Shown piece by piece: positions 29,818-32,698 of a stretch of 64,000 bases of DNA (position 1 is the first letter of the stretch; each line of letters opens with the position of its first letter). The notes beneath the pieces are model-generated. The model saw nothing but the letters and a program-made list of their open reading frames with translations, did not search any database and was not told the origin of the DNA. The stretch comes from Candidatus Aenigmatarchaeota archaeon (GTDB lineage Archaea; Aenigmatarchaeota; Aenigmatarchaeia; PWEA01; JACQIF01), in contig CP066684.1 of NCBI GenBank assembly GCA_016432325.1, positions 1 to 64,000 of the forward strand. Reading direction: 5' to 3'. Position numbers and translations under genes: made by a program.

Positions 29818-30081
29818 TGGTGCGGGAGGTCGGAAAACCACGGTGGGCGCAACGTTTCTTTTGCACCCGTGCTTTTCTACGCGAACTGACGCACACCAAG
29901 TGTGCGTCGAGCACCTCGCGAAAAGCCCGGTTTGAACCGACGAAGGCACTAAGCCACCAGGTCTCCCTGTGGTTATGCCACACCTGAGCGTGACCTCACA
30001 CCTAAGCTTTGCCTCGCGCTCGTACTCGGAATCTCATCCGAAAGCGTGATCTGGCCCCATTGACCGCTAGGGTACTCCCGC
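29818..30081 (-). tRNA. tRNA-Leu with three introns (30/31, 37/38, 59/60) and two alternative anticodon exons (TAG at 30001-30007; CAG at 29983-29989)
   Basis: GCGGGAG/CTCCCGC acceptor, A73, long variable arm; an 87-nt cloverleaf results with either 7-nt exon. Confidence 0.85.
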
Positions 30082-32480: not shown

Positions 32481-32698
32481 TGGCGCTGGGGGTGAGATTA
32501 TCAGCCCTACGCCTTGTGCAAAGCATCTCAGCAGTAGGGAATTCGAACTCACGCGGGCTTGCGCCCACCGGTTTTCTTGCCGTGTTTCTTTTGCACCCGT
32601 ACTTTTCTTTTTGAAAGAAAAGCCCGGTTCAAGACCGGCGCAGTGAATCCCTAGCCGCACGCTTGCGCGCACGGGTTACCAGGCTTTGCTACCCCAGC
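32481..32698 (-). tRNA. tRNA-Ser(TGA) with three introns: D-loop (about 32 nt), 37/38 (54 nt), 59/60 (44 nt)
   Basis: About 88-nt cloverleaf after removal; G73; variable arm GGGC-GCAA-GCCC; BHB helix CTTG:CAAG. Confidence 0.88.

Follow-up and report, generated by a model that had tools for sequence, protein, structure and literature searches.

Introduction

The split tRNAs of Caldivirga maquilingensis and Nanoarchaeum equitans have anticodon pieces that can be swapped "just like a jigsaw puzzle" (PMC4033280, summarising Fujishima et al. 2009 and Randau et al. 2005). Multiple-intron tRNA genes with relaxed bulge-helix-bulge (BHB) introns have been described in Thermoproteales, Korarchaeum and ARMAN (Sugahara et al. 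2008, reviewed in PMC4033280 and PMC4090602). In this study, we examine a tRNA-Leu gene on the minus strand of a 64,000-nt stretch of DNA (the window), which is the start of the single-contig genome of a member of Candidatus Aenigmatarchaeota, a DPANN lineage. The gene holds two tandem 7-nt micro-exons, one with the anticodon UAG and one with CAG, and its best explanation, in which we place moderate confidence on the strength of the sequence, is alternative cis-splicing that would yield both tRNA-Leu(UAG) and tRNA-Leu(CAG) from one gene.

This locus resembles split and tri-split tRNAs in that one body is combined with alternative anticodon pieces to give synonymous isoacceptors, through BHB-type joining cut by the splicing endonuclease EndA. 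In those systems, however, the pieces come from separate genes and transcripts that are joined in trans, whereas here all pieces are contiguous on one strand, both alternatives lie 18 nt apart in a single 264-nt gene, and the acceptor would be chosen in cis. With the genes of Thermoproteales, Korarchaeum and ARMAN it shares up to three introns (at 30/31, at 37/38 and in the T-loop), 7-nt micro-exons, intron families spread between genes and an EndA with an extra loop, but those genes give one product each and none has been described with two alternative exons. Intron removal leaves a canonical cloverleaf of the right isotype, and the genome encodes both an endonuclease and an RNA ligase. The gene is thus a member of the known class of EndA-spliced multiple-intron tRNA genes; what is new is the pair of mutually exclusive exons in cis.

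Mutually exclusive exons are otherwise familiar from eukaryotic mRNAs such as that of Dscam, in which competing RNA pairings make the choice. As in Dscam, one selector could pair here with one of several docking sites, and exactly one cassette would be included. Unlike in Dscam, where splicing is spliceosomal and acts on a eukaryotic mRNA, the proposed machinery is a protein endonuclease with a ligase, acting on an archaeal tRNA. Our literature search found no description of alternative cis-splicing of an archaeal tRNA.

Results

The tRNA-Leu gene occupies window positions 30081-29818 of the minus strand and is interrupted three times. Exon 1 (30081-30051) encodes tRNA positions 1-30, that is, the acceptor strand GCGGGAG, the D-arm and CCAG, the first four bases of the anticodon stem; within it, GGCC (30056-30053, tRNA positions 25-28) is the 5′ strand of the central splice helix, next to the bulge AG/A (the slash marks the cut). 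Intron 1 (30050-30008, 43 nt) contains an internal hairpin and terminates in acceptor 1, GGCA+AA (30013-30008). Micro-exon 1 (30007-30001), GCUUAGG, encodes positions 31-37 with the anticodon UAG. It is followed by an 11-nt spacer (30000-29990), intronic by either route, which terminates in acceptor 2, GGUC+AC (29995-29990), and by micro-exon 2 (29989-29983), GCUCAGG, which encodes the same positions 31-37 with the anticodon CAG. The 37/38 intron (29982-29963, 20 nt) is made up of a GUGG/CCAC hairpin and the shared final acceptor AGGG+AG. Exon 3 (29962-29931) supplies position 38, the 3′ strand of the anticodon stem, the long variable arm (GGC-UUAGU-GCC), the 5′ strand of the T-stem and the T-loop up to position 59. 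Beyond a T-loop intron (29930-29835, 96 nt), whose family is common to other tRNA genes of the genome, exon 4 (29834-29818) completes the molecule with position 60, the 3′ strand of the T-stem, the acceptor strand CUCCCGC that pairs with GCGGGAG, the discriminator A73 and an encoded CCA (CTCCCGC-A-CCA, 29828-29818).

The minus-strand sequence quoted in the initial annotation matches the window exactly, and the elements it had named were all located: the tandem 7-nt UAG and CAG exons, 18 nt apart, the 5′ site GGCC-AG/A, the acceptors GGCA-AA/G and GGTC-AC/G, and the shared 3′ site, which reads AGGG-AG/A. The range it had given for the gene, 29963-30056, was too short and left the additional 96-nt T-loop intron outside. 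Once that intron is also removed, splicing exon 1, either micro-exon, exon 3 and exon 4 together in silico produces the expected 87 nt by both routes. ARAGORN recognises the products as tRNA-Leu(UAG) and tRNA-Leu(CAG), each a perfect cloverleaf with A73, a long variable arm and CCA, and they differ only at the wobble base. A valid tRNA results in silico only if exactly one cassette is included. Judged by its sequence, the gene therefore has mutually exclusive candidate exons: there are two, each with a complete set of predicted splice signals, and one is includable. The motif GCTYAGGTGTG has two matches in the 64-kb window, both in this gene, against a chance expectation of 0.04, and two matches occurred in 0 of 100 shuffles. 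The unspliced gene was missed by ARAGORN, with and without its intron option, and by Rfam at the gathering threshold or at E ≤ 10.

For the splice signals we applied the BHB rule of a 4-bp central helix and 3-nt bulges, with the cut after the second bulge base. Acceptor 1 (GGCA-AA/G) forms three of four pairs with GGCC at positions 25-28, and acceptor 2 (GGUC-AC/G) forms all four, one of them G-U. At the shared 37/38 acceptor (AGGG-AG/A), position 34 faces a G that can pair with U34 as well as with C34. Each cassette thus has its own acceptor tetramer and 2-nt bulge, and both can pair with the shared 3′ site; with central helices of 3-4 pairs and the bulges AG/A, AA/G, AC/G and AG/A, the central boundaries of the gene (both acceptors and the 37/38 site) carry BHB or relaxed motifs. 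Since positions 25-28 are unable to pair with an acceptor and form the anticodon stem at once, removal of the two introns would have to be sequential, and we infer that the choice of acceptor decides the anticodon.

In this genome, constrained ensemble energies give a difference of -4.5 kcal/mol between the two acceptor conformers, with the UAG acceptor favoured, and the difference lies between -5.5 and +1.4 kcal/mol across 12 two-cassette genes. These differences are small, and both folds are therefore thermodynamically accessible, as the initial annotation had proposed when it described them as competing. It had given the fuller helix to the CAG acceptor, whereas the local fold leans towards the UAG acceptor. 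It had further proposed that TGTG after each exon pairs with CACA at the 3′ site; this pairing is present in this genome, but it is missing in the congener G001 and is not a conserved feature. The conserved element at the 37/38 site is instead the 4-nt strand that pairs with positions 32-35.

Conservation among relatives sets exon apart from intron at this locus: at least 15 related Aenigmatarchaeota genomes, of eight families, have both cassettes in nearly invariant form, each with its 4-nt acceptor and 2-nt bulge. The two-cassette layout, always in the order UAG then CAG, occurs in the congener G001 and in families f4 (six genomes), f7 (G222), f10 (G025), f19 (G059), f36 (G255) and f40 (G309). 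Family f7 also includes G022 (locus L216) and G031 (L217), whose second cassette is GCUCAGA, with A37. The G001 orthologue reads GGCAAA/GCTTAGG and GGTCAT/GCTCAGG, with both cassettes and both acceptors present, while its spacer is 15 nt against 11 nt here, its 37/38 intron is 52 nt against 20 nt, and its T-loop intron differs. Identity between these two genes is 13-14 of 15 positions for cassette plus acceptor, compared with 19/35, 2/7 and 10/44 for the intron bodies. Across families, cassette plus acceptor is identical at 12-15 of 15 positions, against roughly 15-55% for intron bodies longer than 10 nt. Spacers shrink in relatives to 4-8 nt, which is the acceptor alone; in G031, where the spacer is 4 nt, G36-G37 of cassette 1 are also part of the acceptor tetramer of cassette 2.

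The acceptors also change together with the 5′ site. Where positions 25-28 are GGCC or GGCU, both acceptors are GGNN or AGNN, and where they are CGCA (G059 and G255), both are UGCG. Changes in the pairs 25:acceptor-4 and 28:acceptor-1 are therefore matched by compensation in both acceptors. This covariation, together with cassettes that stay identical beside scrambled introns, is the pattern of purifying selection on both exons, and it bears out the expectation of the initial annotation that both would be kept in relatives. Cassette 2 has U32 in f4, f7 and f40, like the stand-alone CAG genes of f5, and cassette 1 has C32, like stand-alone UAG genes. Our first strict cassette pattern gave 17 matches, of which four were chance hits inside open reading frames (ORFs), and it missed the A37-ending cassettes of G022 and G031; the class-wide counts are accordingly lower bounds.

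G004 and G030 have just one cassette exon, UAG, with the same acceptor, and this indicates that this type of splice signal is functional. This bears on the idea that only the CAG cassette, beside a canonical 37/38 intron, is an exon here and that the UAG copy is intronic. Acceptor 2 does form the fuller helix when paired by hand (4-bp central and 5-bp outer), and the 20-nt intron after the CAG cassette looks canonical. Such a gene would nevertheless leave CUA (about 580 codons in the sample) without a decoder, as no stand-alone UAG gene was found in this genome, and conservation of the UAG cassette with its acceptor is no less strict than for CAG. Taken with the sole-exon genes, this makes the CAG-only interpretation extremely improbable.

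A second cassette pair was found in family f14, in which one tRNA-Leu gene carries ACUCAGA (CAG, A37) followed by ACUUAAG (UAA, G37). It occurs in seven genomes of four genera (loci L224, in G036, and L222, L223, L225, L226, L229 and L230). Each cassette follows UGCG+AA or UGCG+AG, and the 5′ site is CGCA. Neither cassette changes between these genomes, in contrast to the variable intron bodies. Although the two anticodons have only one base of three in common, both are leucine anticodons, which a neutral relic would hardly explain.

Four independent scans of this genome for Leu genes (a variable-arm/T-arm regular expression, a D-loop regular expression, exon BLAST and a contiguous anticodon-arm search) returned no stand-alone Leu(UAG) or Leu(CAG) gene in the single contig; the Leu-type genes are UAA, CAA, GAG and the cassette gene. 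The absence of ordinary separate genes had been put forward beforehand as a check on the cassette gene, and the inventory agrees with it: the best explanation of this gene set is that the cassette gene is the candidate sole source of both Leu(UAG) and Leu(CAG). Among relatives, the closed genome G019 and G025 have the two-cassette gene together with UAA, GAG and CAA, and G059, G222, G255, G309, G013 and G001 have it together with other Leu genes. In all, the inventory covered nine genomes with the two-cassette gene, drawn from seven families, and stand-alone Leu genes for UAG or CAG were found in none of them. The sister family f5 shows the converse, with the two-cassette gene in 0 of 9 genomes and stand-alone UAG and CAG genes, both of which are present in G005, G010, G012 and G016; G002 and G003 have a stand-alone UAG gene. 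Complementarity between the two-cassette gene and stand-alone genes holds within the order for f5 versus f4 and f1. As a separate observation, G309 encodes a tRNA-Leu gene with the anticodon loop CUAAGGA (L194, G309:C116), whose anticodon AAG is unusual for Archaea.

The G004 orthologue has lost one cassette. It shares a genus with three two-cassette genomes, with G019 and G013 among its congeners, and it reads GGTCAA/GCTTAGG followed by a 31-nt intron, with GTTCGAC in the place of cassette 2 and the acceptor gone; the CAG cassette evidently decays when it is not kept. GC content and CUG use are lowest in G004 among three congeners (small samples), although CUG use does not cleanly track cassette loss.

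Codon use gives both anticodons work to do. In long ORFs of this genome, CUG, the commonest Leu codon, is used at 30.0 per 1000 codons (6,534) and CUA at 2.7 per 1000 (582). CUG codons in rpoD and in the genes for S4, S11, L13 and S9 align with L, I, M or V in orthologues, so that CUG means leucine. CUA would go unread if the gene made only the CAG product, and if it made only the UAG product, the commonest Leu codon would depend on U-G wobble.

An intronless class-II tRNA with the anticodon CAG lies elsewhere in the genome (G000:C1:582673-582759, plus strand; locus L105:1501-1587), and were it to read CUG, the CAG cassette would be redundant here. ARAGORN and Rfam both call it a tRNA with this anticodon, and its lack of an encoded CCA is not disqualifying because the genome encodes a CCA-adding enzyme. 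It has the anticodon loop UUCAGAA, A37, G73 and a Ser-like body, and its nearest matches in relatives are tRNA-Ser genes. Archaeal LeuRS requires A73, a further point against this tRNA as the CUG reader. No homologue was found in 40 relatives, the congener included. By sequence, it would be a Ser-type tRNA reading a Leu codon, at odds with CUG columns that are Leu-like and not Ser-like, and its presence would leave cassette conservation in other genomes unexplained. We do not think that it is a normal CUG reader, and redundancy of the cassette on its account is very unlikely. Two further roles for it were considered and rejected: reassignment of CUG to serine, given the Leu-like columns, and service as a missing Ser(UGA) tRNA, given that Ser(UGA) is encoded at about 32700-32488 of the window. 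Amid scrambled tRNA-like pieces 150 nt upstream, its anticodon arm recurs as a 16-nt copy (582512-582527).

The genome encodes a single EndA of the alpha4 type (PF01974, 97 bits; a 201-aa ORF at L046:1474-2079, minus strand). It can be aligned over its full length with the alpha4 enzyme of M. jannaschii (PDB 1a79), and a 6-residue insert rich in Lys, KKGPKS, immediately precedes its catalytic His. Loop inserts near this His, and loop-bearing alpha4 EndA of DPANN, have been linked to relaxed specificity and heavily disrupted tRNA genes (PMC5829648), and the EndA of this genome may likewise have relaxed specificity. RtcB is also encoded (PF01139, 531 bits), at around G000:C1:406386-407777.

The genome is 874,869 bp long with 56% GC, and the DNA of the organism occurs in groundwater metagenomes among public sequencing runs. 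A run of 100 N at the contig end (G000:C1:874770-874869) is probably an assembly or circularisation gap, so that a small part of the genome may be missing. With rpoD 31 nt upstream and the L13 and S9 genes downstream, the Leu gene has a setting that is kept in relatives, and its precursor is probably co-transcribed with this rpoD/ribosomal-protein operon.

The genome is rich in tRNA genes interrupted by large non-canonical introns, two to four per gene, and members of related intron families turn up in different genes. By a custom scan for acceptor stem plus CCA, about 33 tRNA genes were recovered, an incomplete share of the full inventory. The tRNA-Leu(CAA) gene has the same design as the cassette gene, with introns at 30/31 and 37/38 flanking one 7-nt micro-exon, ACUCAAG. 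Its 15-nt 5′ end, GCGGAGGTAACCAAG, is present twice, 45 nt apart (G000:C1 about 758070-757690, minus strand), which may reflect either an intron whose borders are ambiguous or duplication of the 5′ exon. The tRNA-Ser(UGA) gene (window about 32700-32488, minus strand) stands in the same ribosomal-protein operon as the cassette gene and has an intron in each of three places, the D-loop, 37/38 and the T-loop; it was missed by ARAGORN and Rfam, and the intron that it has at 37/38 is related to the one in the T-loop of the Leu gene. A further multi-intron tRNA (G000:C1:698587-698774, minus strand) has the anticodon loop CUUAUAU, consistent with tRNA-Ile(UAU). One intron family, CCGGGCUUU...AAAGCACGGGUGCAAARGAAAC, is found at differing positions of differing tRNA genes (window 29835-29930 and 32590-32630; G000:C1 630007-630080, 545.5k, 741.0k, 635.5k, 204.3k and 829.8k), and a second, GCCUUUUUGC...GCAAAAACCCGCGGGAA, makes up many D- and T-loop introns of the genome. 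Such related sequences in different tRNA genes suggest intron mobility, as described in Thermoproteales.

Discussion

We propose that EndA cuts the precursor of this gene and that RtcB rejoins the pieces. The 5′ site of intron 1 (positions 25-28 with AG/A) would pair either with GGCA-AA/G before UAG or with GGUC-AC/G before CAG, and the cassette thereby joined to exon 1 would supply G31, completing the anticodon stem. All that remains up to A38 would then leave as the 37/38 intron through the one shared 3′ site, whose G fits U34 or C34, and the T-loop intron would be removed independently. The UAG route would release introns of 43 nt and 38 nt and the CAG route introns of 61 nt and 20 nt, and the predicted joined sequences are CCAG/GCUUAGG/ACCUGG and CCAG/GCUCAGG/ACCUGG. 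The outcome would be two 87-nt tRNAs that differ in the wobble base, a mutually exclusive exon choice made through competing RNA helices. The ratio of the two products could be tuned by helix strength.

Several observations weigh against alternative splicing. CAG tRNA seems dispensable in at least one lineage, since G004 lacks the CAG cassette and a pattern inventory found no CAG gene there, so that complementarity with stand-alone genes is not strict. The inventories of relatives in general used 5′-end or variable-arm patterns on partly incomplete genomes, and related genomes are non-independent observations. G059 keeps the CAG cassette at a CUG use of about 3 per 1000 codons (small sample). 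CUG is used 11 times as often as CUA in this genome, yet the local fold is 4.5 kcal/mol in favour of the UAG acceptor, and the intronless CAG tRNA at 582673 offers another nominal CUG reader. In G001 and G255, an A stands opposite position 34 at the shared 3′ site, where the UAG cassette consequently pairs better. With their short outer helices (2-5 bp), the splice motifs are of the relaxed type, and tolerance of EndA for such helices is an assumption. Finally, among public runs, a search for the organism returned four DNA runs, all belonging to one groundwater study, and no RNA run.

The fold in this genome, the A opposite position 34 and the single UAG cassette of G004 all lend themselves to the main rival explanation. 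According to this, the UAG cassette is the one exon of the two, and every precursor loses the CAG cassette, a relic of duplication or a structural element, within a long 37/38 intron, with tRNA(UAG) alone able to read CUA and, through U34-G wobble, CUG. Yet a relic would not be expected to remain identical at seven of seven positions, with a covarying intact acceptor, across eight families in which the neighbouring intron is scrambled, and in G004, where the cassette was not kept, it has decayed and its acceptor is gone. As a structural element, a near-copy of a real exon would be harmful, competing for the shared 3′ site. The cassette anticodon is always a leucine anticodon, in the CAG/UAA pair of f14 as well; stand-alone CAG genes are missing from the inventoried two-cassette genomes and present in the sister family f5; and it is the top Leu codon of this genome that would be left to wobble. 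Given this balance, we consider a UAG-only gene a possibility to be taken seriously but rather unlikely. Alternative cis-splicing, as first proposed for this locus, is favoured by conservation of exons and acceptors, covariation, the gene inventory and the accessibility of both folds. Parts of the original proposal needed revision, in that the CAG product is not indispensable in every lineage, as G004 illustrates, the T-loop intron had been overlooked and the TGTG/CACA pairing is unconserved.

Beyond this genome, the comparative data point, with fair probability in our judgement, to a general cassette system of Aenigmatarchaeota. In such a system, one tRNA-Leu body would be served by two alternative 7-nt micro-exons (UAG/CAG in at least eight families and CAG/UAA in f14), of which EndA would pick one per molecule via competing 4-bp helices. 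If true, this would be, to our knowledge, the first case of a tRNA that is alternatively spliced in cis and, for Archaea, the first alternative splicing of any kind. Standard tRNA finders miss such genes or give a single anticodon, and the decoding capacity of DPANN is therefore under-called.

If both products are made, the range of alternative splicing would grow to include tRNAs, Archaea and the protein-only EndA/RtcB pathway. It would also give tRNA introns a clear function, a long-standing question, and would show a route by which ultra-small genomes may compress their tRNA sets.
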